A stretch of 64,000 bases of DNA, taken from Yuukianura sp. NJ FZ-2021 (Eukaryota). Positions 3,001-63,722 of this stretch are shown here, one piece after another. The DNA lies in assembly GCA_046563655.1 (NCBI GenBank), contig CM102284.1, positions 3,038,001-3,102,000 on the forward strand, read 5' to 3'. Positions within the stretch are counted from its first letter, which is position 1. The number at the start of each line of letters is the position of its first letter. A model generated the notes under the pieces. It did not search any database. It had not been told where the DNA came from and saw only the letters and a list, made by a program, of their open reading frames with translations. Made by a program: the position numbers and the translations under genes.

Positions 3001-3890
3001 TCACCCACTACCAACCTGGAAAAGCGTACAAACTTTGTTCCGCAAAATCGGCAAAACGAGTAGTCACTCACTAGTATACAAAATACAAAGGAAAGAAAGT
3101 TTCCTTGCAAAATGCTATTAGCTAATAGACAACCCGCACTTGCTTAGATATCCGCAATACTTCCAACTACCATCGTTCTAGTATCTTACAGCAGTAATTT
3201 CAGTAGTTTAATCTTACCGTCAGGATCAAAGGTTTTGGTCACTGAATCCTTTGCTAGCATTCCAGCTTGATGACGCATGAGACTCTGAGTTGGGTTCAAA
3301 ATCAAACATGCCCCCATTACCACTGCAGCATCACACCTTCCCGTCTGAATCGCTGTAACGGCAGCATCCAAAGCAAAAATACTTGATGAACACGCCGTAT
3401 CGTAACTTGCACTCGGACCGTGGAAGTCAAAACAATACGAAATCCGATTCGGCAGCATCGTACCGAGTGACCCAATCAAGTTGGCTCCATCCATTTCCTC
3501 AGCAGAGCGACTCCAGAGGTCAAGAGCCTCGTGGGAAATGATTGCCGTGAATACGCCTGTGCGTGACCCGCGTTTTTCGACTGGATTAATCCCAGCATCG
3601 AATATGGCCTCATACGTCGTCTCTAGTCCAATTCTTAGTTGAGGATCCATTTGCTCCACTTGCTTAGGTAGAAAGCCAAAGAAGTCTCCATCGAACCTAT
3701 CAATTTCCTTGAGTGTGCCAAATCCCTTTGGAAGTCCATAGAGACCGGATTTGAAGCGACGATTATTCGAGGTCACGAGGTCACGGCTTTTAAGTAAGTT
3801 GGAAATAAATTCCTTAACGGAACTTGACTCGGGAAATCTACCCGATATGCCTGAAATTACTACTTCTGGAAGACGCTGCTTGTTTTCCAT
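1..3890 (-). CDS. FASN: Type I animal fatty-acid synthase / FAS-like PKS, 5' part (ketosynthase domain); continues beyond the window start
   Basis: Exons 3890-3218, 939-464, 364-149 and about 80-1, with GT-AG boundaries. KS motifs are GISGRFP, DPQLR, DTACSSS (catalytic Cys), EAHGTGT, KSNMGHAEGASG and NCFGFGG. Confidence 0.9.
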
Positions 3891-4157
3891 CCTGGAATGC
3901 TTAATGTACTAAACTGAACTGTAACAATTCAAAATTTCCATAAAGAATTGTGAAAACAGAGGAAGTATTTCAACTTTTCTTTTGAAATCTTGGCAGGGGT
4001 CAACTTATTGACTTCGAGGTCACCTTAAACATGCAACAGCAAACTGAACATGCAGGAAGTTCGGCAAAATATAGTAACATAGACAAACCTGTTTCTTCCT
4101 AACTGGTAATGAGGAGGAAGGAAGATGAAAAACAAAGTTGTAACGATAATTATTTTT

Positions 4158-7113
4158 TTAATTGTTTTGATTCAAGTTCAGCAAAATTTTACAATAATTC
4201 AGAATTTCAGTTTGAAATGATATGTTACGAATAGCTGCAATGAATTTATAGTACTTTGTCCTCAACTTTTTTTTCAATTTCGTGTTTCGTCTTTGCTCAA
4301 ATCCAAACTGAAAAATCGCCAGCAAAACGCCAACACAAAATATAATGAAGATTGCTACCAAATTTGTGTTAAAAGAGAGTGGAAACCATTTTTTTGAAAA
4401 CTGTTCATCCCTGTTCATCCTCTCCCATCGTTTTCGTAAAGCTTTCAAACTCAGCAATTGCTGCCAATAATTAAACAAACCGGAGAAGTAGAGCGAACCA
4501 ATTCTGCTTTGATACGATTCGGTTTCCCATACCCACGGGACATCTTCCCGCGAAATTTCAATTGTGTAAGGAGACGAAAAAAGCGTCTCGGTTCCAAAAT
4601 ACACAAAAGGATTCGTGAGGCGACTCGCCATTTCCTGCAATGCTCTTCCTTTATCAACGAAAATTCGATTCTCACATGGCTGGGATGCGTTGAAATCATG
4701 TTCGCCTAATGAATACGGGAAACCGTGGGGCAAGGTCAAAGCATTCCCGAGTCTGCGCGCCAGATCTCTCTCTTCAGCATTATTGGACAGATTCTCCGCC
4801 GCATCTAAATGGTATTTGAATTGTGCTGAGTGAAGATGTCGCGTGTAATTCTTTGTATGCTGAGGATGAACCAATTTGTCAAATATCGCCCATGATTTCG
4901 CTTCCAGTGGCATTCCTGGGACGATAGCGTAGTTTTTCTCAAGGGCATCTCTAAACGTGGTTATTCTGTCAGGTTTCAATGGCTCCGTTGCTGTTAACAC
5001 TGATTTGTAAGTATTCGTCAAAATCAACGCAAAAACAAAGTATGGAATCATTAAGGTGCCTATTACTTTCAAGCGCAAAAGCTTGTCTGAAATTTGTGTC
5101 ATTTCTAGCAACGGAGCCATCAGAATGAAAACAATTGGGTCATGCTTCAAATTTTTCTTCTTGAAAAATAATTCAAAAATCCCCGCCAACAAAACGCAGC
5201 TACAAGCAACACCAATCCAGAGTTCTGGCTTGAACGGACTAACATAGAAGAGAAATGAAATTTTTCGTTTGTGCTGGTCGTCGCAAGCAATAAACCCGAA
5301 GGGTTCTTGCTCCATTTGCAAAATGTACATTGGCCATTGCTTCCAATCTTTCCAATCTTTTTGCAAAAATGCGGCACTGTCAAACGTTAAGAATCCCCTG
5401 TCTTGTATAAATGGGAAATGTTTTGATTTTTCACGAAGTTGTATATAATGAGAAATAAACTGTGAGCCACAGATTCGATAGGAGAGTAAATCGTTTCGAT
5501 GGTAAAATGAACCAAAAGTTGATCCGGTATAGTTGTGAATGTACGAAATCAAAAGTTCCGCTATGGAAATTTTTCCTTGTGCTACTGTTGCACTCAGGCT
5601 TAGCAATTGACGGAGGTTTGCTGCTGATGACCTCATGAATCCGCAGTGCCCTTTGACGTTGTTGATTCTCCAATACCCCAAAGTTTTGTTTCTGATGAGA
5701 CTCATGTGCCTGTCGTGAATGACTTTGAGTGACCCCCAACCAGTCAATTTCGTTCGTGACATTTCTTGGCGACCCATCGTAGGATATTCCATATCTGGAA
5801 AAAAATATTCGGCTTGAAGCTGTTGCGTAGCACCGAGTTGAATGATGAGGAACGGAAGGCGGCCAATGCTCCATAGAACGTGTATTTTTTCGTTCCTAAG
5901 GAAACTAACTTGTGTCCAATTCCATGTCACATGAATAAGGTGGGTGTGCAAGGAGTAGTGGGTCCTTTCAAAGATGGAATCTGTTTTGGCATTTTCGCGT
6001 CCTGAGTCACAAAAATTGAAAGCGGAAAATTACGACGCTGGATTATTAATTTTTAAATGTATTCCGCGCTTGGAGTTGTGTTTCAATAAACATGCGATGA
6101 TAGCACAAATGGTTGATGTCGATCGTAATTATATTGCACGCTCTGGTCTAACCCATCACAACCATTCAACTCTCCTAGCGCGTGGTAACCTTGAGCATGC
6201 ATGGGAATTATTTTTGATTTTAAAAAACATGATTATTGTAAACCCCCAAGGTGTCTTGACAACAGAAAACTTTTTCTTTAAAGCCCAATTTGTAACCAGT
6301 TTTCCTAGGCAACGATTCCTATCGATATCCAACGATAGGAGAAGTTTGTCGTAGAGCGAAAATAAAATAAATTTTTTAAAGAATCTTATGATTTCATATG
6401 ACATTAAAAGTTCTACGACAAACATTTCCTAGCAAACGTTACCTGGGAAAACCGCGTATAAATTGGGCTTATAGGCAATACGCTAGGCTAGGCTAGGCTC
6501 GTGTGTCATTTTGTTTAGTTGCCTTGAGAAAAAGCCTGTTACAGAAAAAGTATTTGCATTGATCAACCCCTTTACAACGCTAAATTTCCCTAATTTAAAT
6601 TCGCGCTAGAATTTCCGTTTCAGCTCACCTCGTAATGAGGAATTCAATTTCCCGCTTAACGAGTAAAAGAAGTTGCTGCTGACCTGTTGCGTAGAGTAGA
6701 AGTTTGGCCTGAATCCATGGATGACGATTAGCCGCTAAGTGACGAATGGGAGTGCTGGCTTGGACAAAAGCACATCCCACAGAGATTAGAGCCAAGCAAC
6801 GCATTTTACTCAGATAGTGTGATCCGAAGTTTGGCGCCGGTCGATTGTACATTCCCAATGCCGGAAACTTTTCCGATACTGTGTAATTCTTGACCAGAAC
6901 CACTGGAATTTCCAACGGGAACTCAACACGTTTTGCTATGTGAATGTGATCCACCGAAATTACTTCAATCCAACATTTTTCAAAGACTTTCAATACTGGA
7001 GCAATGCATAACTCCTCCGGTTCTGATCCCATTGACTGAAAGACTAAAAAGTACAAAATTCCGACAAAAGGAAGAAATCTAAAACCAAACTTTTTGGGGC
7101 TAACCACACCCAT
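4158..7113 (-). CDS. Divergent ionotropic receptor (IR/iGluR-like) chemoreceptor, 763 aa, 2 exons
   Basis: Exons 7113-6629 and 5964-4158 join in frame (AG|G). There is a hydrophobic N-terminus, an SPF..ELW pre-M1 segment, an M3-like 'LILTNTYKSVLT..P...ITTF.D' segment and an M4-like 'PLS...LVAIFIIFCVGVLLAIFQFGFE' segment. Confidence 0.65.
6281..6470. mobile_element. Degenerate MITE-like element in the IR-gene intron
   Basis: Left arm AAGCCCAATTTGTAACCAGTTTTCCTAGGCAACG matches the reverse complement of the right arm, AAGCCCAATTTATACGCGGTTTTCCCAGGTAACG. Confidence 0.7.
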
Positions 7114-11325: not shown

Positions 11326-12806
11326 TCCACTACAGTGGATATACTATAGTGGGTCACAGTCACGATAGACGATACCAAAATGAGTCTTTTGGCCATTCTC
11401 TGGGTTAAATCTCGATGGAAAACAAGTTTTGAAATGAAACAGAAGAAACAGGAAAATGACTAGAATGGATGCTGAGATTCGCTAAAGGAGGCAGGTTTAA
11501 ACATCGGACGCCAAACCGGTTTCATAGACAGACCGACAGCTACAAAGAGCCTTTACTTAACCTTTACTTAAGTTCTTGTATTTCCTATAAAACATAAACA
11601 TAACGTGCAACTGGAATTCGGAAGCGTTCTGGAATCGGCTGTCGGTAGGTGATTTAGCAACAACTGAATTAAATATGAAATAAAACAAATCACGCACTAA
11701 ATTCTTTTTAGTGTGAAATTCACCCACATGTTAAAAGAATGAGCAGTGTGGGAAGTGGGATAAAGTATGTGCAATGTGTACATCCTTGTCCTACCGCTCA
11801 TCTTTGTACATTGTAACATACTAGTAGGTATATGTTGGAGGAGGGTTCAAGGCCAAAACAGTTTAATCTTAAGATACAACTTGACAAAGTTGGTATTCAT
11901 AATTTGTCGGAAAACGTTTATCGTCGCCGCAACATAAAGCGCAAAGTGCCTGCGTTTATTAATTGAGGCTAATTCTTTTCAAAATTAGAAGAAAAGTATT
12001 TTTAAAATAAAATAACGCATTAGTATGGTGTCTTTAGTTGACGGGTTAAAAGAAGAGTATGAGTGACGCTGACTCTACAATTTGCAAAGGAAAATTTTAG
12101 AATAATTGATAAGATGAAGCACATAAGGAAGAATAAAACTAAGAAATTACTGATAAAGTATTCAAAGTGACATTTGAATTTTTGCAATACTAGTCTTAAC
12201 GCCTTCTCACACCCATAGTGTGATAATCTTGACAGATTTGTGCATGACTTCCTCCAGTTGCGCAGAACGTTGTACTATTTGAGTGATTTGCTGCTTATCG
12301 TTTAATTACGTCATTGCAAAAATGTTGCAAGAACTTACTATAAAATTGAAGGACAAATTTGATTTCTTATGGAGAGTTCATCTTTCAGTAAAAGACTTAA
12401 CAAGTAGTTGTTCATGCGCTGTCAAAAGCAGTAAGTTTTTTTTTAACTTTCTTTTTCATTGTTTATTTTTCCGTACTTTCAGATTTACTTTACTTACTTC
12501 TAAAAATGTAGCCTTTTGTTCAAACTAATTTTCCAATTCTTCATGTTTTGTTTGAAACAGGATTAACCTCTTGTTTTAAGCAAAGCGTTTAAAGCAGGAT
12601 GTTTAAAACGTCCGTTTAAAACAAGGAGACCCTGATTGTTATTAAGCGTACAAAAGTTCTTCGACTGATCGAGACCTTAGTTTAAATTTGTATTTGCAGT
12701 TAAATTTTGCATATTTCGGATATTTTCTAATGTCTTTCTTCAACTTTTTTTTTTTTTGATAGAATTGCTTCATGAATTGTGTTTTCTCTTTTATTAGAAT
12801 CTTGAA

Positions 12807-13247
12807 ATGCCTACGGAAGTTCTCATTCAAGAAGCCACTACTGCCCAACAAATTGCGCATTGTTGGCCAGCACTAACTGGACTTAATTATACCGTGCTTG
12901 AAAGCGAATTTGTTGATAGAGTGCAAAGGCAGCAGAGGGAGGATCATTACCGACTTTTCTACATTAAAGGACAAGGTGGCAATGTTGAAGCGGCCATGGG
13001 AATCAAAATTCAAAACTCACTTTTCACTGGGAGAACGCTGTACATTGATGACCTTTGTACTGTTGCTACTAGTCAACGGAAAGGCTATGGGGGTCAACTC
13101 TTGAAATTTGCTGACGATCTAGCTAAACTTGAAAATTGTGATACTATGACGCTTGATAGTGGCTACCATCGACACAACGCACATAGACTGTATTTGAACA
13201 ACGGATTTACTTTATTTAGCCACCATTTCTCCAAAACAATGAAATAA
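12807..13247 (+). CDS. GNAT-family N-acetyltransferase, coding region intronless, bacterial-like
   Basis: 146-aa single ORF with 'LYIDDL', acetyl-CoA motif A 'QRKGYG' and C-terminal 'LDSGYHRHNAHRLYLNNGF....HHF'. Confidence 0.88.
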   Translation: MPTEVLIQEATTAQQIAHCWPALTGLNYTVLESEFVDRVQRQQREDHYRLFYIKGQGGNVEAAMGIKIQNSLFTGRTLYIDDLCTVATSQRKGYGGQLLKFADDLAKLENCDTMTLDSGYHRHNAHRLYLNNGFTLFSHHFSKTMK

Positions 13248-23209: not shown

Positions 23210-24006
23210 GGTGGCCCACCATAGGTGGGACTCTTCATGAAGAATTCTTCAATGAGGTGTAAACTTCACGAGTTATTCTTCAAATTCATGAATTTTGAAG
23301 GGTGAAGTTTTGAGGGGTACAAATCCGGTGAAGAGTGAGGTGTTGAATTTTTGAGTTGTACGCAGATATGTGAATTTGAAGGTCTGAAGATTTTAAGTGT
23401 ATGTAGGAATTGAAGTTTGAAGTTTTGAATAGTTGAGTGGTCGCTAGCCAGGTGAATTTGAAGAGATGAAGAGATCTTCATTTCACTTCAAGCTATCCAT
23501 GTTGTTGCTCCATCTCTCGCTTAGCATTAGCAAAAAGCGTTGTGGTATGCGAGTTTGAAACAACCGCGGTTGTTTACAGTTTTCGACTACCTTTGTTTTT
23601 TTCTCAAGTATATTCCCGTCTTGACCGAGCCACTTTAAGTGTAAAATCGTTTATAACTCCAATAAAATGACCAGTAAATTTAAGCAAACTGTTTTGGTCA
23701 CAAGTCCTGGTATTGACAAGGATAACGACGTCATGGAGGTTCGTCCAGATGCTGCTGATACCTGATTTTTGAAGTGAAGGTTACATGATGTTGAGGGGAT
23801 GAAGTTTTGAGTTGTAAGACTGCATGTGAGTTTGAAGGGATGAGTTTTTGAAGAGCTCAATTGCAAACGAATTTGAGGGTTGAATATTTGAAGTGTAACC
23901 TAGCCAGTGAAGTTGAAGAGTTGAATATTTGAAGTGTAACTGTGCCAATGAGTTTGAAGAGTTGAGGGGTTCTTCATTTGAAGATTCCCACCTATGTGGC
24001 CCACTG
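23210..24006. mobile_element. Non-autonomous TIR element with internal TTTGAAG-rich short repeats
   Basis: Left end GTGGCCCACCATAGGTGGGACTCTTCATGAAGAA compares with the reverse-complemented right end GTGGGCCACATAGGTGGGAATCTTCAAATGAAGAA. TTGAATATTTGAAGTGTAAC is repeated internally. Confidence 0.7.
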
Positions 24007-24222
24007 GTCCGTGTAGTGCTTTGTTCGTTTTCTTTGTCTCTCCTTGCATAAAATAGCATAATAAACCGAAAATAATAAATATTTTGTCAACAAAAGCCAA
24101 GGCACCCACTAATCGGCAGAAAAGCAGAAACGGCAGAAATTCCACTTCTGCTGTACCTGCGTGAATTTGAACCGCAGTATGGGTTGGATCCACTATTCCT
24201 CAAAAACGTGTGTTATGTTTGG

Positions 24223-24322
24223 NNNNNNNNNNNNNNNNNNNNNNNNNNNNNNNNNNNNNNNNNNNNNNNNNNNNNNNNNNNNNNNNNNNNNNNNNNNNNN
24301 NNNNNNNNNNNNNNNNNNNNNN
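24223..24322. other. Assembly gap (100 N)
   Basis: Run of 100 n characters. Confidence 1.
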
Positions 24323-25184
24323 AACAGCTCTGAGAACCGTACTCGGATTACACCGGCTGTTGAGTAAGCGCTTAATCCGAACCGCGTCACTCTGTTCAGT
24401 CTTTTGTGTTTGAGTAAAATCCAAACGAATCTGTTTTGCCTAAGCGGAACGAAAATCATAGATTATTGACAAATAAAGCACATGCTGCAAATTCCGTTTT
24501 GAACAAACCTTCGCTTGAACTCCACATGTACTAGTACCGGAACTCGCTTCATGATTCAGCCTGGACTCCACCCGTTGACGTTTCGGTGCCTTTTGCTGCT
24601 CTACATTCGTCAGCGACGATTTTGCTAACTCATTTCTATCGGAGGACTCCTAAATGACAACATAGAACAATACGTTATTTTAATGATCAAGAATAAAATG
24701 AAATAGTTGCAAACTCGTTCCTCTCACCTGTTGAATGGCATTCATAAGGGTCCGCAATTCCTGTGGCCCGGCACCACTAATCATGATATCTACGTAAGGT
24801 CGTCTCATTTGGAATGTAATTTTACCTTCCCGGACAAAGTTAGCCACAATGTGATCCATGTCTCTAACCTTGAAACCCCAAAACCAAACCAAAATTTCAT
24901 TGCTTACCTACGTAGTCAGATTTTCTTAGGATCGATTTAAACTTGAGATCGCATCAAGGTTATTTCTAGTAACATACGAGAAAACGTCGTCCATTTAGAG
25001 AGTTAACGGTGGATAAGGACAATTCCAGGTATCCTTGGGTATTCTGCGTCAATCCAATGACAGTTTTGCTTTTTGACATCCCGTATCCTTTGCCAGCATC
25101 AGGTTTCGTCCCGAGCAATGACAGTCGTGGTTCAATCTGACAACTGGCACGAAACTCCAACGCCATCACTGTTGAACGTTCCAT
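24323..25184 (-). CDS. PIF1/LRR1-type PH-domain protein (LRR1-like), interrupted by the assembly gap
   Basis: Spliced exons encode 'FVREGKITFQMRRPYVDIMISGA...LRTLMNAI', which resembles the N-terminal PH-like domain of LRR1/PIF1. The frame stays open into the gap. Confidence 0.55.
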
Positions 25185-25540
25185 TCAAACGATTTCCCTG
25201 AAAAACAAACAAGTGTGACAGCAAAAGTGTTGTTCCGGATCGGTTTACATTGACAATTTGGTCGAAGTAAACTTTGGTCTCCCGCTTGTTCCCACCCGTT
25301 CAAATTTTCGCGCTGCCTCTACATATTGTACCCACCCAGTGATCAAAATTTAATGATTTAATCAAAAGTCAGCTAGGTTATTTTACCAAAAAGACCCATC
25401 CATCAAAATAGAATTGAATGGTTTAATTTTATTTTGACAACATAAAGTTACAGATTCCTTCGTGACTTTGTTTCTTGGAATTGTAAGAAAGGGAAGTAGG
25501 TAAATGAAAATGATTTTTGGTGTTTGTTCTATTCTTGTTA

Positions 25541-28005
25541 TTAGAATGACGACAATTTGTGCTGGACACGATTCAGCTCCTCGTATACTTTGGCTCCTGC
25601 CTTTACATCACGTGCTTCGGGTGACAAATCAGGGTGGAACTGAGGATCTTGCAAGTACAACTGCTTGGTTATGACCGGTAGTCCTGCCATTCGTTGCTCC
25701 AACGCTAAAAGCACTCCCAATGAGTAATCGCCTTCAACACTGAAAATTAGCAAAATCGCACCTTTTAGTAGTTGTTTTAGAAAACACTACCGCAATCATT
25801 ATATAAATATAACAAACATTTAAGATTCATTTACGTGTCCAAGTAGCAGAAGGTAGTAGGGGGAGACGGCACACTTTGGTTCACATTCTGCGCGATGTAC
25901 GCTCGGATCTGGCTTTTTAGGAGACGATAGGCTCTCATGCGATTCTCAGTTGGTGCTTTCAACGTTTCATAAAACGTAAACTGAGCGTCGGGTAAAGTGA
26001 CTTCCAACAAGGTCAGACGATTACTTAGTCCTTTACCAGTATTCGCAAGGTGTCCGTAATGACTTTCGATAAGAATCAGTAGACGATCAGGGACAAAAGC
26101 AGTAGGCCAAGGAAGTACTGGTTTTCTGTTCAAAGGAGGAGGTCGAGTACTGGTCATGCTGGAACAAGTGGAGCTGGTATTGCTGAGCAATTTGGAGTTG
26201 ACCCTTCGGCGTGAGAGGTTCAACTTAACATAGCCCAAACCCACCAGAAACGTTCCAGGAGGGACAGCTAAAGAGTGAACATAAGAGTCCAATTGGGAGC
26301 CTGACATGACGACAAGGATCAAACAAAATTTACTTTTTCTCAGCAAATTTCAAAAATCGACAATTTATCGGAGGATTGAAAAATTGTAAACAGCTTATAG
26401 TTTCGTATTTGTAACAATTCACGATTCTGGTCGTCAAGGCATTGGAAGATTCAATTTAAAACATCAATTGGGTCACATCACAATTACTTTTATTCCAAAA
26501 GAGAAAAAAAATGAGCATTAGATTGGATTTTTAAAAAAGGAAATTCTGAGTAATATAACTTATGGTCCACAAAATCGTAACCAATCGAAGGAAAAAGTAG
26601 TCAAACCGAACGCCTCATGTTGTCGTCTGGCAACATTCGTCCCGACTCTACTAAACCGTCTGGTCTTGCTAGTCGAAAGCATAAATTCTCACCGTCCAAT
26701 TCAAATACATATTCTCCAGGAACCAGCATGCTAGAGTCGTGGTCAATTAGAAAATTGCTCAAGCTCGGAAGTAGCAACGTATCACTCGTACTATGAGTTT
26801 GACGAATAGCTGACATTTGAGGTGGTTCTCTACGTCGGGTTTCTTCAGATAGAGATATTACTGCCTGATCCGCATGTCGATCTGCAAGGGCCGCGGAACT
26901 AACCTGGGAAATACTATCGTCATTCCGGCCCGGTAGCGCATTGTGAGTTCCTTGAGGTTTGCGTCTTAACTTTGCGGAACTCAACCTTTTATTTCTTTGA
27001 TGTCCGGATCCAGAGCCAGGGCCAGGAAGTTTAGATTCAATTCGTCCATCAGGCGGCGGCGAGGTGTTTACCGCGGGGGCTGTACTTGACTCTACCAACA
27101 TCAATTTTTTCCCAATTTTGCCGTAGGTAAATCCCATCCGTTTCAATATACGACGAAAACTTGTTCGGGATCCAACAAAATTTATACTCTGCCTTGTAGC
27201 CGCCAAGATGGACGGAATATACGTTGGTATTCTGTTTTGCAAACCGCAAAAAGTTACATTATTTGTCCCATTTCACATATACGAATTGATACAAGAAACG
27301 TGTGAGATTTGTTTACCGTTGTAAGTTCATTTGATGTATGATATTTCGAATAGCACTTTCGTCATCCTCGCTTACGGTATCCAGAATTCTCTTCTTGACT
27401 TTTCTCTTCAGTGCTGCTTGTTCCAGGATGCCACGCTTCCAATTGTTCCTCAGCTTTTTAATAACTGAAGCGGATACATTGAGCACTCGAGCGGCCTTTT
27501 CCTGCGGAGTCCTAATACGGCTCTCTAAATAAGTGTCATTTTGGTGATTTTGTAAAAAATGTAGTACATTGAGTATCAACTTCTGTGATTGCTCGTTGAA
27601 GATTTGTCCAGCATACTGGAAAGGTAGTGGTGCAGAATCATTCCTTCTTTGACGTTTCTTCAAAGTAGTATCAGAAAGTGTTCCTAGTGAACTTTCTGGA
27701 TCAATCATCACGGCATTAGTCTCAATTACATTTTCAATCACTTCGTCCACATGTTGGAAAATCAACATCATATCCTGCTCGCTACGAACAACGTCATGTT
27801 TCTGTTGCAGGCGTGAATTAGGGAAAGCTACGTTAGTGTCGTTGCAGCTGGAGCCGATCACAACTTCCTGAATTTCATGAAAATTAACGTTGGAGAGGAA
27901 TTCGTTACTGTCAATAACAACGGGGAAATATTGACGCGAGGAATCAGCAGTCAGCGACGGTTCTGCCTCTGTCCCTCTCTCTGCTGTGGTCACTTCCGTT
28001 TCCAT
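25541..28005 (-). CDS. Transposase-derived protein: IS630/Tc1-type DNA-binding region without DDE, fused to a degenerate C48/Ulp1-like domain, ~657 aa, 4 exons
   Basis: Exons 28005-27317, 27231-26612, 26300-25835 and 25739-25541 are in frame. The HTH-like region reads 'AARVLNVSASVI..IRNIIH..PT..FVGSRTSFRRILKRMGFTY'. The donor at 26611 (GTTCGG) is weak. Confidence 0.6.
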
Positions 28006-28127
28006 CAGTATCACTCCTTCTTCTACTTATTTAGAAAATCCTGGCGACTGTTCAAAAATGATTTATAAAAATTCGAGAAGCCAAACCAACTCCGAGTCAG
28101 CTGATCATTTTTTTAACAATAATAGTC

Positions 28128-28192
28128 GTGTCTGCCTATTCCCCTCACCGTTTTGCTTAACTCGATGAGCAATCAGGAGAATAGTCAGACAC
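28128..28192. repeat. Short inverted-repeat element (family copy 1), upstream of the transposase-derived gene
   Basis: GTGTCTGCCTATTCCCCT ... AGGAGAATAGTCAGACAC, 18-bp arms with 2 mismatches. Confidence 0.8.
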
Positions 28193-30375
28193 TCTATTGT
28201 TAGCAATCGAGACCGAGACGCCAACCGAACAAGGTTACAAATCAAAGAATCCTGGTGTAAACATCGTCGGAGGAATCCTATATCCGACCTTTAGCCAGCC
28301 CATTTTTGTTTCACTGTTGAAGATGAAATTTGAATTTAGGGGTCGCTACTATTCGGCACATATATCAGATAAACCAGATTTTCGTATTATGGGGGGAAAC
28401 CAATGTCCGAATTGTGTAATCGAGCCACTTATATTACAAACGCATCGCGGTTTGGGGAAAACGGTGTTGAGGTGGTTTCCGTTCGCAGTTACCGTAAATA
28501 TCCTATAAGAAGCGCGCGTATATAATTATTTTGCCGGTTTTCGGCTGCGATATAATTGGAAACATTTTTTTTTTTGCATTTCTGGCAATTTGTTTTCGGT
28601 TCGGCTACGTCAAAATCTAAACAGCTTGAGGGTGCACAGTTTCCATCTTTATGGGCTTTGGAGTTCCTAGTACCTAATGAATTCTAACCTGCATTTTATC
28701 ACGATTCAGCTCTTGAAACTGCTGTGGATTTTTTGTTCGAGGCGTTGAGGAGAAAGTTTGGAGCAATGCTGCGACTGGTGCAGATGAACTTTCACTTTTC
28801 TCTTCTGTATGCCCATTCTGTTTATAAGGAATAAAGACGTTATACAGATTTCGTCTGTTATTTCAATTTTGAACTAGGGGTCTATTGATCGGAAGTATTA
28901 CTACTATGCACCTAGGCTGCTGATGACAGGAGATAGCAGTAGGTTGCATGTTCGACTCACTTCTTTCCAAAAGTGAAAATTCCCTGAACCAACTTTCTCC
29001 ACCTTCCTCATTTCTTAAACATGAGGCGTCAGCTGGTGAAAGTACTTCTACTGCTCACTAAACGGTACCAAAACGATGCTACTCATCGACTGATTACGTT
29101 TCGGTTGCACCCAACACGCCTTGACCTGGTGCGCTTAATCAATAAGCTGGTATCCAAATAAAGGTAAGGAAATTGTCATTCTTTTTTAATTTCTGGCATT
29201 CCTTTTACAAATTATCACTTGCCTTAGAATATGATACTTTTACACCTGAAGGTGAGTTCGACGTATTGTTCACATAGTTATATTAGTATGTTACGCAATT
29301 TAATGAACACGGTTGACAGGTTACAGTCACATGGCAAAATAACGGACGTCAATGTAACTTGTTCAAGTCAATTTATCAAAAGTTCAAAAATCGGTCGTAG
29401 CTTAGGGATTTTTCAAGTTTATAGAATATCGTCGCTCGTGGGTGAAATTATTAGTTGCGTTCTATAACAATACACAAAGCTTGGGTTACTATTTCAAAAG
29501 TTATGTCGCTGGACATTTGCATCTTTCGTCCATCAGTTGCTCCTATATTGGTGAGTCAGTAACTCAATCGTTTGGAAAGCAACATGATTCAAGTGTTTAA
29601 TTAATATGCACTGTGGCTCCCGGCGCCTGCTTTCCTCACTTTTCCTACTTTGGTATGTGCCTTGCCCTTTTGCGACTCACAGAGTGAAAGTAAAAAATTG
29701 AGAGCCTTAAAAGTGAGTTGAATTCAAGTGGAAGAAAGCAATAAACATCTCTTTCCTTCCTTGTTCATTCAGTCGTGAAATTGTTCATTACGCCTCAATT
29801 TTCCTATTGACAACTCCATAAAGGAACAACAGGACGAATACACGGGTTCAAGCATTAAAAAAAGTATACTAGTATAGTATGTTACAAGAAGCTTTTAGAG
29901 CAAACTGTAAAAACACCGATGACAAGCGTGATTTTTGCCATAAAAGATGAGTCATACAGAAGAACTCTCGGAAGGACGCTGTTCCCAAGAAGCCCACGAG
30001 CAGAACGAAGGACATTGCAGTTGGCCCAGTCCCATTTGGCCAGCACTGCACTGCGTCACAGTAAAACATTCTTTTCAAAGGCACATGATTTTAAGTATAG
30101 CCAAAAATATGCAGTTGCCTTGACGTTTTGGAAGGAGTAAGCATTTTAAATAAACATAAAAACTAAATTACACGTTCCGTACTGTCTTCATTTCCTTTAT
30201 TTCAGCAGAAGCGAGGAAATAGCAAAGTAAAACTGTTTTTGAAGTGTATTGAGTAAAAACGTATCTAACTTTTGATTTTTGTTGAAATTTCAGTAGAGTG
30301 TCAAACTGGCAATTCCATCAGCCGTGGAGAAAATAGGGGAGATCGGCTCAACGCGCGACATTACAAGTTTGAAGA

Positions 30376-55949: not shown

Positions 55950-58900
55950 ATGTCCACGACCAGTGGAATACCAGGAGGTGGGCCTGAAAAAGGCGAAGTG
56001 CATACGGAAGCTCCTCAGGCAATAGACCTGGCCCATGGACATGGTCATCACGCTGTTCCCCATCCAATTCATCATACAACGCACGTCTTGAGAGCCAGTA
56101 GCGCTGGAGCTACATCCGTAGTACAAATTAGACCGGTGAAGACGTTTTTAGCTCCGGGTGCAACTTTGGTTGGTGGAAAGAGTGGAGCATCGATGAGTCT
56201 TCCGACTGTCGTTACTGCTTCACATCCTTCAATACTTGTCAACAGAGGTGGTGGACCATTGACGCTAGTACCGAGAGCAACTGGGAGTCAGCTGACTGGG
56301 GTTGCTACGTCACAAAATTTGTCCACGCTCCAATTTGCTCGTGGAACGTTGCTAAGCAGCGTTAGGCCCAATTTGAACACGGGACAACACACGAACATTA
56401 CCGTTACACCAATTTCTGCATCCAGGTAAGACGTTTTTCTTATTCTTTCGAATTTGCAGTTCTAGTCTGCTCTTCTGCCTCGTTAAAAAAACAAAATGTA
56501 ATGTAAATGTATATTCTTCTAGTTTCGGCACATCAATTAGGATAGGTACCCCGGTAAACAACGGCTCCTGGGTGCAAAGCACTGGGTCGCCAGGGACGAG
56601 TTTTACCTCTGTACGACCTACAACGATTCAAGTAACGAGTCGTGCCGTAAGACCGGAAGGCGGAAAAATAATTCACATTCCTCCAGGTGGAAGCGTTCAA
56701 CATTTGACTCACGTAAGGAGAAATTGGTTGTATCGGAAAAATCGGTGTCGGAGTTAGATGTAAGGTTTTACATTAACCCGATTTTTTGTTTTACAGCTTC
56801 AAGTAGTTGACGGCAAAGGGTCCATCTTGAAACCAACAACTCCGATCAGTGTTCGCGGTACTCTTCAACAATCAGGTTCAGGAATTACTTTGGGACCGAT
56901 GCCACCGTTCACTATCCGAGCAACTCCAATTCACAGGCCTCCAGCGCCCGTAATAACAACGTCGTCACCGTAAGGGAAATATTTTTAACAATATTCATGA
57001 ACTTTCACTGTACAAAAAAAAATGGTTTTCAGGGCCCAAAAAGTAATCACTCAACCTGCCCATGGACCTCCAATAATTGTGAACACGAATCAAAAGTTCA
57101 CTCAAATCCAAAATTTTAGTTCTCTGCAACGTATGCCTCCAGTTATTTCAATTGCTGCGAACGGTGAGAAATAATTTCAGTTTTTAAATTAACTAAATAT
57201 CGTGATATTACAATCGCAATTATGCGTTGCACTGTGACTATTCCTTTTTAATCTTTTTCCTCTGATTACGTTGGTTTGGGGAGAAGTGCGAAGTAAATAA
57301 AGAATCTAAAAAACGTCTGGGCAGACCAGAATTTCGTCCGCGGACAAGTCTGGTAACCATCGCCACCGTGCTTGTAACATAACCACTTTCTGATTAAATT
57401 GGGTGGTTACAATGAAACAGCTTTTCATTTTAATACTAGCCACTAAACAAGCAAATAGATTGGGGATACTTATCACATGTTTTTTGAATTTGTTTTCAGG
57501 TGGAAGCACCGTCATCACTGGTTCAACTCCCTCCATCGTTGGTGTGTCACCGAGACAAAGTTCAAGTATAATTATGAGCGCCGCTGCTGGAACTTCCACT
57601 CCAACACAACTCGCCAAAGTGTACCCTATTTCATCCCGGGACATCAACACGACATTAGTCGAAACGTACATCAACCAAGGTCACGTTCAAGTGCAACCCC
57701 AACAAAATCACATTAATTCTCCAACTTTGACTGTAATGCCTAATGCGGTCACTTACAGCAATACTTCTCCTTCAACAATCCGACCATCTTTCGTCATCAC
57801 TTCAAGCCCAAGTTCGCTAAAGACTCTCAGTCCTTCATCTCATCAAATTGTTCAAGTGCAAACCCCGGCCACTGCTAACAGTAACAGTGGAACGTCGCTC
57901 ACCCTTCCGAACTACTACATTGAACCAAAGAATCTTCCAACCAATGTCTCAATTTTCCCTGCAGGGACGAAGCGGATATCTGTGGTTGAAAGCGGGGAAA
58001 AGCGATTTGAAAAGGGGACAGCACTAGTCACCGCTTCTGGTGGGCATATGATTCTTACACCAGCGAGTACATCCGGTCTGTCAGCGGCAATTCCTCAGGA
58101 CTCTGCGACAAGTGGTGGTCTAGTTGCTCATTTCGCCCATCCAATTCCATTGCAAACAACTTCCAGCTCTAGTAGTATTCAAATCACCGCCCATCCTCTG
58201 GCTGTTCACAAGGGCACTCCACTGTCCTCAATCCCACATTCACAAATTTCAATTCATCCACACTCCATTCAAAATGCAATTTCATCTGCCATTATTGCGA
58301 CCTCTGTCACGACAACCATGCTCTCCGCAGGTACTGTCACCTCCACAAACACCTCCGTTGTAACTCTGAGCTTGAGTAACTCTGGAAACAACGGAAATGG
58401 AACAACGGCCATCAGTTCCATCACAACGAGCACAACCGTTTCACCGCCTTCTTCTTGTGTGACGACTTCCATTACCTCAAGTTCTGCTCAGTCTCCAAGC
58501 CAATCCAAATCTACTCTCAGTCCGAGACCATCCATTCTCCGTAAGAGGGAAGCCGGTGCTTGTGAAGCGAACTTTATCCCGCTAAGGGCTCAACGGAATC
58601 TCTCCGTTAACTTTTCATCTGCAGGTAGTGCAGTACCTCCGATTGGACTTGGACTTGGTCAGGGTAATGGCGGTCTCAGCTCCTCTTCGTCACCCGCTAC
58701 ATCAAATGTTCTTATTTCTACAGTATCAAACAAAGAAAACAGTCAAAATACTAACCTCGGTGGAAGTTATGCCAATTCCCTGTCAAATTTTGGTCTCAAC
58801 GTAAATCCATCAAATAGCACTGGAGGAGGCCATCCAGGCATATCAATTCTCAAGAAAGAATTCCTGCCTCCCAATGAAGAGTCTTCTTGGCAGTCCTCAA

Positions 58901-60687
58901 GTTCAACTTCGAGTTCCGGCTCAACCACAATTTCAGCGACTTCTGAGACGGCAGAACTTCCGGTGGGAGACACGGGGTTTTTACCTTATCAACAACAAAG
59001 TCTATCTTCCGTACCAATCCAACAAACTTTGTCGAATGTTTCCGGGCAAGTCCTTCCTAGGATTTCGCAGTCGTCTGCATTGCCTCTTACAAACGTAAAC
59101 CCACTTCAAAATGGAGTTTTTGTAAGGTCGAGACCGCCTACACTTTCAAGCTCATTCACTGGTCTCTCATCGGCGGTCTCCATTGTTTCCGGATCACACG
59201 TAACCCCACCACGTCACAGGGCAGCAGCTTTACCAAAGGGCAGGGAGGCTAAGAACAGGTCAAAAGAAGTCGTGAGTCCAAGGAAGAAACCGCGGAAACA
59301 ACAACTGTGAGTGACAATATGATTTTTACTTGTGAAGATTCGAACTGATAGTTTGTACTTTGTAATATCCCGGTACGGCACGATGGAGTTCATTTTAAAT
59401 ATCAACTCTGTGCTGATGCAACACATAACCCTCGTTTCACAATATTACCCACAGCTGATACTTGAATCTGTGAATCTGAATGCCAGAAAAAAATAACGCA
59501 TGTGACCATGAGTATGAAATTTGCGTTAAAAGTTTCACTTTTCTTTATTTTCGCTTCAGATTTAATAGAGTTGGAGTTGGCAAACCGATTGGTGTGTGCG
59601 ATTAGGCCGGAAGTTCTTGTTCTTTTTCTAATAACTCATGTTTGTTTGTTTCAGAACTACCAGTGACTTCATCGAGTCTTCGTCACCAGAGATCTCTTTC
59701 TACCAATCAAAACGGTTCAAAAGGAGCAACGAACCCGGTTAGTCCATATAATTGTTACTTAAACGATTTATGTCAAGGTATTTTTGAACTGCAGAGTCCT
59801 TACTTAGCTAAATTTTGTAATGCAGGATTGGGGAAAGGTGATAAGGCAATTGACCAATCAGCAGTGGCACCACCCATATCCATCCCACCAATTCCACAAG
59901 CGCCACCGTCCCAACCCCAGGAAGAAAGAATTTTATACGTTATCCAGAAACCACGAACGTCCATCTTCGAAACGAACAAATATGTTCCTAATCTCCGCCA
60001 TAATCATTTCAAGCGATACTCCGATGTTAAACCAAAGGATGAGCGAAGACCAACTATTAGTGACTTGGCGAATCAAAAAAATGTTCTACTCAAAATCAAG
60101 GGTTGGAAGTTAAAACATTTGACAACTCAAATGGACCGAGTGGTTAGTGAACTCTGTCATTCCTAAATTAAAAATTCAAAACCAGAGCCCATAGTAATTT
60201 CAATTTGAAGTTAGTACTTATGCTGTTGTGAAAAATAGTTAAGGCTCCTTGCCTGGTATATTTTGAAATTACTAAAAATTACTTTACTAAAATGTGATTG
60301 GTAAATGTGCAATGACGGTTACCTGGTTTTTAATTTGTAGGTGGAATCAGAAGTAGAAGTTGTTCAGCAATTTAATCGTCTCCTCTTTGAATTAAGTTCA
60401 GAGGACTTCATATCGAATACCAGTTCCAGTCGCGATCTCATCAGAATCGAGGATTTACTCAAGGTAAGAACATTCAAATGTTATGATTGTTGTGTTGATA
60501 AAGCTCGGCGGCTGACTTGATTTTTTTTCTTTCGCAGGGAAATCTCCAACGGTGCAAAGTTGTCAAAGACCAATTGGTAGAATCCAAAAACCAAGTAAGC
60601 AAAGTTTTGGAACACCATCCCCGAATTCTGGAAGTTATCGGAAAGCACATAAGCAAGAGACCTGTGAAGAAGCGTGAAAAGTTATAG
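55950..60687 (+). CDS. SAP130: Sin3/HDAC complex subunit SAP130
   Basis: S/T/P-rich body with 'SPRPSILRKR', 'SPRKKPRKQQL', 'HFKRYSDVKPKDER' and 'GNLQRCKVVKDQLVES'. Confidence 0.9.
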
Positions 60688-61894: not shown

Positions 61895-63722
61895 TATTGC
61901 ATTCAAAAATAATTTTGTGCAATGCAATTAACAATTTTTAGCAACGCAGATTGCAACGTGAATTAATGCATAACTGTTGTTTTGCAATATTATTGCCGCT
62001 GAAATCAACAAAAAGAATGCTGGTTTGACTCAGTATTTTTTGCGTTGTAACACTTTCGGTGCTTCAAAATTGTATTCAAAAATAATTTTATACAATGTAA
62101 TTCACAAGCACTCAGTGCTTAATTTTTAGCAACGCGGATTGCAACGTGAATTAATGCATAACTGTTGTTTTGCGATATTGTTTCCGCTGAAATCAACGAA
62201 AAGAATGCTAGTTTGACTCAGTATTTTTTGCGTTGTAACACTTTCGGTGCTTCAAAATTGTATTCAAAAATAATTTTATACAATGTAATTCACAAGCACT
62301 CAGTGCTTAATTTTTATCAACGCGGATTGCAACGCGAATTAATGCATAACTGTTGTTTTGCGATATTGTTTCCGCTGAAATCAACAAAAAGAATGCTAGT
62401 TTGACTCAGTATTTTTTGCGTTGTAACACTTTCGGTGCTTCAAAATTGTATTCAAAAATAATTTTATACAATGTAATTCACAAGCACTCAGTGCTTAATT
62501 TTTATCAACGCGGATTGCAACGCGAATTAATGCATAACTGTTGTTTTGCGATATTGTTTCCGCTGAAATCAACAAAAAGAATGCTAGTTTGACTCAGTAT
62601 TTTTTGCGTTGTAACACTTTCGGTGCTTCAAAATTGTATTCAAAAATAATTTTATACAATGTAATTCACAAGCACTCAGTGCTTAATTTTTATCAACGCG
62701 GATTGCAACGCGAATTAATGCATAACTGTTGTGTTGCGATATTGTTTCCGCTGAAATCAACAAAAAGAATGCTAGTTTGACTCAGTATTTTTTGCGTTGT
62801 AACACTTTCGGTGCTTCAAAATTGTATTCAAAAATAATTTTATACAATGTAATTCACAAGCACTCAGTGCTTAATTTTTATCAACGCGGATTGCAACGCG
62901 AATTAATGCATAACTGTTGTTTTGCGATATTGTTTCCGCTGAAATCAACAAAAAGAATGCTAGTTTGACTCAGTATTTTTTGCGTTGTAACACTTTCGGT
63001 GCTTCAAAATTGTATTCAAAAATAATTTTATACAATGTAATTCACAAGCACTCAGTGCTTAATTTTTATCAACGCGGATTGCAACGCGAATTAATGCATA
63101 ACTGTTGTTTTGCGATATTGTTTCCGCTGAAATCAACAAAAAGAATGCTAGTTTGACTCAGTATTTTTTGCGTTGTAACACTTTCGGTGCTTCAAAATTG
63201 TATTCAAAAATAATTTTATACAATGTAATTCACAAGCACTCAGTGCTTAATTTTTATCAACGCGGATTGCAACGCGAATTAATGCATAACTGTTGTTTTG
63301 CGATATTGTTTCCGCTGAAATCAACGAAAAGAATGCTAGTTTGACTCAGTATTTTTTGCGCTGTAACACTTTCGGTGCTTCAAAATTGTATTCAAAAATA
63401 ATTTTATACAATGTAATTCACAAGCACTCAGTGCTTAATTTTTATCAACGCGGATTGCAACGCGAATTAATGCATAACTGTTGTTTTGTGATATTGTTTC
63501 CGCTGAAATCAACAAAAAGAATGCTAGTTTGACTCAGTATTTTTTGCGTTGTAACACTTTCGTTGCTTCAAAATTGTATTCAAAAATAATTTTATACAAT
63601 GTAATTAGCAGGCACTCAGTGCTTAATTTTTATCAACGCGGATTGCAACGCGAATTAATGCATAACTGTTGTGTTGCTGATATTGGTTTCCGCGTTGAAC
63701 ATCAACAAAAAGAATGCTGTTT
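61895..63722. repeat. Tandem satellite/minisatellite array, 188-bp unit, about 9.5 copies
   Basis: Near-identical units recur at an exact 188-bp period (62165, 62353, 62541 ... 63481), with degenerate edge copies. Confidence 0.97.

Follow-up and report, generated by a model that had tools for sequence, protein, structure and literature searches.

A gene that begins like a transposase and continues in an unfamiliar way raises the question of where its C-terminal half comes from. Such a gene lies on the minus strand of a 64,000-nucleotide stretch of Yuukianura sp. NJ FZ-2021 (contig CM102284.1, positions 3,038,001 to 3,102,000), which is called the window here and whose numbering is used throughout. 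Its coding sequence (28005..25541) consists of four exons joined via GT-AG introns into a single frame of 1974 nt, or 657 codons. The sequence-only reading of this locus had recognized an IS630/Tc1-like helix-turn-helix (HTH) region in the N-terminal part and had taken the C-terminal exons for a catalytically dead Ulp1/C48-like domain, that is, a DNA-targeted pseudo-protease. We lean, with rather modest confidence, towards another answer, namely that the gene encodes a catalytically dead whole transposase of the IS630/Tc1 type that was turned into a host DNA-binding protein. The host gene would then descend from an entire, DDE_3-like (DDE, Asp-Asp-Glu) transposase and not from its DNA-binding end alone.

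Two profiles of IS630-type transposases were used as templates. One was built from 25 distinct open reading frames of the IS630/DDE_3 kind taken from viral contigs, and the other from 13 full-length transposases, of which nine come from Pseudomonadota genomes and four from the same viral contigs; Pfam, applied to three of these 13, reported HTH_23/28/29, HTH_32/33, and DDE_3. Against the full-length profile, residues 121-290 of the protein gave an hhalign score of 39.1 (P=2.8e-5, probability 74%) in an alignment of 118 columns that places residues 153-273 on template columns 21-146, and none of 100 shuffled sequences reached this score (mean 13.3, standard deviation 2.4). HMMER gave 15.9 bits for the HTH region against IS630 (conditional E=3.7e-7), a value equalled by 0 of 1000 shuffles, and its alignment spans both HTH units without interruption over the junction of exons 1 and 2, which supports not only the family assignment but also that splice. 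Judging from these alignments, the N-terminal part of the protein is, at the level of sequence, a transposase-type bipartite HTH. The earlier claims of an IS630/Tc1-like HTH and of an intron inside it are both borne out. When residues 125-229 were compared by a protein language model, the nearest neighbors were clusters of arthropod hypothetical proteins (0.95-0.96), followed at lower rank by clusters that carry DUF7769, HTH_psq, HTH_Tnp_IS630, HTH_23, and HTH_28/PAX, which we treat as a lead.

The HTH similarity stops at '...RILKRMGFTYGK', immediately ahead of KLMLVES. It had been stated that the resemblance to transposases ends there, which is correct for the HTH match; however, a weak likeness to transposases returns in exon 4. 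For the 188-residue tail of the protein, hhalign gave 18.5 with the viral-contig profile (P=0.038; 6 of 200 shuffles as high; reversed sequence 12.9) and 22.0 with the full-length one (P=0.019; 2/120 shuffles as high), and the latter score was matched by none of 130 unrelated real segments of 188 residues, the highest of which reached 21.9. Across the IS630 comparisons the P-values for the whole tail ranged from 0.019 to 0.056. The tail occupies template columns 143-337, directly behind those matched by the HTH, so that both alignments are colinear. In this register the first Asp-Glu strand is paired with 'LLILIES', the conserved strand that follows it with 'GLSNRLTLLEV', the strand of the second catalytic Asp with 'CYLDTVEGDYS', and 'yLPaYSPDLNPIE', the Glu helix, with 'YLQDPQFHPDLSPEA'. 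Exon 4 alone scored 19.5 (P=0.0069, 0/80 shuffles) and 18.4 (P=0.023, 0/60) against the two IS630 profiles, and in both it was aligned to the correct template segment, where its 'PQFHPDLSPEA' pairs with 'PaYSPDLNPIE' of IS630.

The residues in the three catalytic columns of the hhalign registers are Ile514 or Leu513, Asp591, and Ala634, so that of the D,D,E/D triad only the second residue is retained. Because only one of the three columns is acidic, the protein is not an active member of the IS630/Tc1 family. The signature 'YSPDLNPIE' would have changed to 'FHPDLSPEA', with Asp591 as the only catalytic acidic residue left, and the protein would presumably no longer be able to cut DNA. These alignments lend weak support to the view that what is left of the RNase H-like catalytic core of the transposase itself makes up the last 60-170 residues, and the extreme C-terminus is probably a relic of the catalytic helix region of that same transposase. 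From the colinearity and from the strand-strand-strand-helix order that AlphaFold2 predicted with low confidence (strands at 72-81, 92-101, and 106-114 and a helix at 117-139 of the exon 3 product), we infer that exon 3 may represent the degenerate part of this core that holds strands 1-4. The predictions were made for single exons without an alignment, and their mean predicted local distance difference test (pLDDT) values were 38.4 for exon 3, where every residue stayed at or below 70, and 38.8 for exon 1.

Several observations weigh against the descent of the tail from a transposase core. Exon 3 alone scored at chance against the IS630 profiles (10.7, 62/80 shuffles as high; 15.4, 11/60, in the wrong columns), and therefore the mapping of strands 1-4 depends wholly on the combined alignment. 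HMMER gave -1.0 and -1.8 bits for a DDE domain in the tail, scores that 75 of 1000 shuffles reached in either case, and Pfam DDE_3 was absent from exons 3 and 4 at E<=10. The P-values of hhalign carry no correction for the several comparisons made and were obtained at a greedy setting (-mact 0.05), and the IS630 templates are all bacterial; a search of the viral contigs for eukaryote-type Tc1/IS630 transposases by motif patterns returned 0, 0, and 2 irrelevant loci. The hhalign alignments of the whole protein with alternative alignments were over-extended and were not used. For the N-terminal part, the sole HTH match of Pfam on single exons was a sub-threshold RWP-RK (exon 1 residues 165-185, E=4.2e-4, 20.6 bits against a cut-off of 29.3), which is explained by the intron that splits the domain. 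On the side of the transcript, the RNA comes from one metatranscriptome run, in which 6% of the sampled words occur and from which a single contig of 234 nt was obtained (26757-26990, 233/234 bases matching). The 26612/26300 junction, for which the sequence-only reading had proposed a check, lies outside this contig, which falls wholly within exon 2; no splice junction, that of intron 2 included, is covered by the reads or the contig of the run. No orthologue was found in any homologue search, in libraries that returned no self-hit and probably lack this lineage.

Could the tail be a dead protease of the Ulp1 kind instead? The strings quoted in support of this, as well as the linker string, are all found in the minus-strand translations (Table 1), and the register in which they were aligned by eye to SENP/Ulp1 replaces the catalytic His, Asp, and Cys with Arg, Glu, and Leu. 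Ulp1-like domains are found in some DNA transposons, so that the idea was a reasonable one. The order predicted for the elements (three strands, then helix, strand, and helix), itself of low confidence, would suit clan CE no less than RNase H, and the positions aligned by eye lie 17 and 51 residues apart, a spacing similar to that of Ulp1; the likeness to Peptidase C48 consists of this order and this spacing. A fold of this type, reading SUMO or ubiquitin and brought to DNA by the HTH, is nevertheless extremely improbable in our judgment. In exon 3 as in exon 4, Pfam reported no Peptidase_C48 at E<=10, nor was any C48 chain found in the PDB sequence searches at that limit. Against a profile of 14 bacterial Peptidase_C48 domains, seeded with E. 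coli ElaD, hhalign gave 10.9 (P=0.62) for a 276-residue tail, in a register unlike the one drawn by eye, and 10.8 (P=0.55; 92/120 shuffles as high) for the 188-residue tail; exon 3 and exon 4 taken singly gave 10.9 (P=0.40) and 8.2 (P=0.71). HMMER returned -1.7 bits, and 465 of 1000 shuffles were as high. The alignment by eye is thus not beyond chance, the pseudo-protease drew no support from any of these searches, and it would leave 'FHPDLSPEA' unexplained. A related possibility, that exon 3 is an alpha/beta module captured between the transposase HTH and the C-terminal relic (perhaps a dead clan CE reader of SUMO or ubiquitin, or a new fold), is very unlikely; if it were true, the protein would be a DNA-targeted pseudo-enzyme of undescribed architecture. 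Profile tests weakly favor a degenerate DDE core over C48, and by these alignments the tail resembles an eroded catalytic domain of a transposase more closely than a dead SUMO protease. The case also illustrates that several different folds can be read by eye into a pattern of three strands, helix, strand, and helix in which every catalytic residue is 'substituted'.

A more serious competitor is the co-option of the HTH alone, with exons 3 and 4 forming an unrelated, unclassified alpha/beta domain and 'HPDLSPE' being a coincidence. We hold this to be unlikely while granting it a real chance, as exon 3 has no signal of its own against the IS630 profiles, neither HMMER nor Pfam detects a DDE domain, and the search with exon 3 over 1.84 billion representatives gave only a bacterial repeat protein; moreover, this route of domestication is described in Drosophila, in the part of the survey on which we draw (PMC13548663). 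It has to account, however, for the placement of exon 4 on the right segment in two IS630 profiles with none of the shuffles as high, for a tail alignment that continues the HTH alignment colinearly and puts Asp591 on the second catalytic Asp, and for a score that no unrelated real segment equalled. Distinctly less probable is a transposon copy that is immobilized or still repetitive, perhaps from a family with introns, in place of a domesticated single-copy gene. The copy count covers the 64-kb window, and no orthologue by which selection could be judged came out of the homologue searches, which leaves some room for such a copy. Against it, the gene is not bracketed by terminal inverted repeats (TIRs), it has an N-terminal extension and a long insert that the templates do not have, and its 1974-nt frame stays open over three GT-AG introns although the core is barely recognizable and has kept only one of the three catalytic columns.

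A domesticated, catalytically dead whole transposase is the most economical reading precisely because these things occur together: an almost unrecognizable core, two of three catalytic columns lost, and a frame that is open over three introns. A core worn to this extent in a frame that is still open across four exons suggests long-term selection, and hence domestication and not a decaying copy. The earlier claim that the gene has no TIRs stands, as none of the four pairs of inverted repeats found in 23500-30000 brackets it. No second copy of the gene and no other IS630-like element was found within the window; thus, what would mark an autonomous cut-and-paste transposon, flanking TIRs and a further copy, was found neither in 23500-30000 nor in the window, respectively. 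Homologues, junction-spanning RNA, and a usable fold were not obtained, so that domestication is here an inference.

Among known systems, the transposases of the IS630/Tc1/mariner (ITm) superfamily share with this protein a bipartite HTH of the same order and spacing and a tail that aligns colinearly to the DDE core and contains a recognizable version of 'SPDLNPIE'. They differ from it in that two of three catalytic columns are non-acidic here, TIRs are missing, the gene has three introns, the protein has an extension of 150 residues before the HTH and an insert of 215 residues after it, and its core is not recognized by HMMER. By a hand count, the interval from the second Asp to the Glu column is ~43 positions here and ~35 in the templates. 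CENP-B and the pogo-derived TIGD/Jerky genes are domestications of whole transposases with a dead DDE-like domain. Like them, the present gene lacks TIRs and has an N-terminal transposase HTH for DNA binding, which it would combine with a degenerate catalytic domain as a structural or interaction module; unlike them, it would belong to another ITm branch, as the templates that were compared and matched are of the IS630/DDE_3 type and not of the pogo/DDE_1 type.

Genes derived from Tc1/mariner elements in Drosophila come from the same source superfamily and can be judged by the same diagnostic criteria (PMC13548663). In the part of this survey used here, CG4570, cag, and toy are examples of the DNA-binding route and CG14478 of the catalytic-domain route, and the genes are reported to keep the HTH or the DDE module, not both (PMC13548663), while the gene described here seems to retain both, the DDE module in degenerate form. 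CG4570 has 225 residues (PMC13548663), compared with 657 here. The marks of domestication given in that part are the absence of TIRs and target-site duplications (TSDs), low copy number, an intact open reading frame, homology to transposase, syntenic orthologues, purifying selection, a monophyletic clade apart from transposons, and one spliced mRNA (PMC13548663). Of these, the present gene shows an intact frame, the absence of TIRs and TSDs, and homology to transposase.

The homologue searches were otherwise blank. In a full HMMER search over 1.84 billion representatives, exon 3 had one match, a bacterial repeat protein, which was discarded because the similarity is confined to the low-complexity stretch at 27-67. 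Word-indexed protein searches (exon 3 against longer proteins, exon 1 near its length, and the HTH part of exon 2) scored nothing, the Atlas gave no usable match to exon 3, the metagenome scans no match, the NCBIfam and PDB sequence searches only rows at chance level, and Pfam no match to exons 2-4 at E<=10. Because the gene did not hit itself in them either, its lineage being probably missing from the libraries, these blanks say little on whether it is an orphan.

As to the gene model, the ATG at 28005 is the first one downstream of an in-frame stop, the donor of exon 1 reads ACG followed by GTAAAC, and exon 1 also encodes a basic patch, KKRQRR (27660-27643). The donor adopted for intron 2 (26612, GTTCGG) agrees with three of nine consensus positions, whereas another of the same phase (26693, GTGAGA) agrees with seven of nine and would give a product of 630 residues, shorter by 27. 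Since this upstream donor fits the consensus far better, the 27 residues between the two may be intronic or alternatively spliced, as far as the sequence alone indicates. The extension ahead of the HTH (~150 residues) is acidic and, like the linker that follows the HTH, has no counterpart in the IS630 templates. The linker matched no family, and its second half, which is more hydrophobic, may be structured. The coordinates of the features are collected in Table 1.

Table 1. Features of the gene and positions of the peptide strings mentioned in the text.
Feature	Position in the window	Strand	Remarks
Coding exon 1	27317..28005	-	Residues 1-229 plus 2 bases; acidic N-terminal extension and first HTH
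Bipartite HTH DNA-binding region, IS630/Tc1 transposase type	27102..27549	-	Residues ~153-273; split by intron 1
Intron 1	27232..27316	-	85 nt, phase 2, GT-AG; within the second HTH
Coding exon 2	26612..27231	-	Remainder of the HTH, then long Ser/Pro/Arg-rich linker; 3' end uncertain, alternative 26693
KLMLVES	27107-27087	-	Translation
Linker/insert	26146..27101	-	215 residues (274-488), 65% polar or Pro/Gly
Intron 2	26301..26611	-	Phase 1; 311 nt, or 392 nt with the 26693 donor
Coding exon 3	25835..26300	-	Low-complexity stretch, then strand-strand-strand-helix-strand (predicted); last codon is Asp591
Putative degenerate DDE (RNase H-like) core	25544..26145	-	Residues 489-657; split by intron 3
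LLILIES	26082-26062	-	Translation
SNRLTLLEV	within 26037-25999	-	Translation
FTFYETL	25980-25960	-	Translation
Intron 3	25740..25834	-	95 nt, phase 2, GTAAAT...CAG
Coding exon 4	25541..25739	-	Includes the stop codon 25543-25541
DYSLGV	25729-25712	-	Translation
AGLP	25687-25676	-	Translation
'FHPDLSPEA', putative counterpart of the IS630/Tc1 signature 'YSPDLNPIE'	25613..25639	-	Segment of the third catalytic residue; Ala in the Glu column
AATAAA, candidate polyadenylation signal	25428..25433	-	Starts 108 nt past the stop codon; from sequence

The window as a whole looks like an arthropod-type nuclear genome. Its G+C content is ~40%, its introns are short, and its exons include those of a fatty-acid-synthase-like ketoacyl synthase, an MFS transporter, a short-chain dehydrogenase, and a GNAT acetyltransferase; neither Rfam nor a tRNA scan matched anything in it. 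The exons of the C- and N-terminal domains of the beta-ketoacyl synthase lie on the minus strand at 452-982 and 3186-3908 (E=6.1e-38 and 1.6e-54) and are part of a fatty-acid-synthase or polyketide synthase-like gene that extends past the start of the window. A large exon on the same strand (4158-6029) is an open frame of 623 codons that contains hydrophobic, membrane-like stretches and to which Pfam assigns no family at E<=0.001. The GNAT domain (Acetyltransf_1, E=1.7e-10) is encoded on the plus strand at 12798-13247 by an uninterrupted frame of 149 codons, seemingly intronless beside intron-bearing neighbors. Also on the plus strand, 57394-59310 is a Ser/Thr/Pro-rich frame of 638 codons without a Pfam family, probably a large low-complexity exon of a neighboring gene. 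At 61933-63722 there is a tandem array with a unit of 188 bp (9.5 copies, 98% matches), which also shows as a series of short, nearly identical frames on the minus strand.

If the gene is a domesticated, catalytically dead whole transposase, as we are inclined to think, its product would probably have a nuclear role in sequence-directed DNA binding, for example, as a transcription or chromatin regulator or as a binder of relic transposon ends, and the acidic N-terminal extension and the mostly disordered insert of 215 residues could act as interaction surfaces. The gene is then an instance of an already known kind, the domesticated transposase, and the current understanding of transposon domestication would stay unchanged. 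It would add one more case in which a whole IS630/Tc1-type transposase has become a host nuclear protein that keeps the DNA-binding module together with a dead shell of the catalytic domain, and genes of this sort would be candidate regulators or transposon-end binders.

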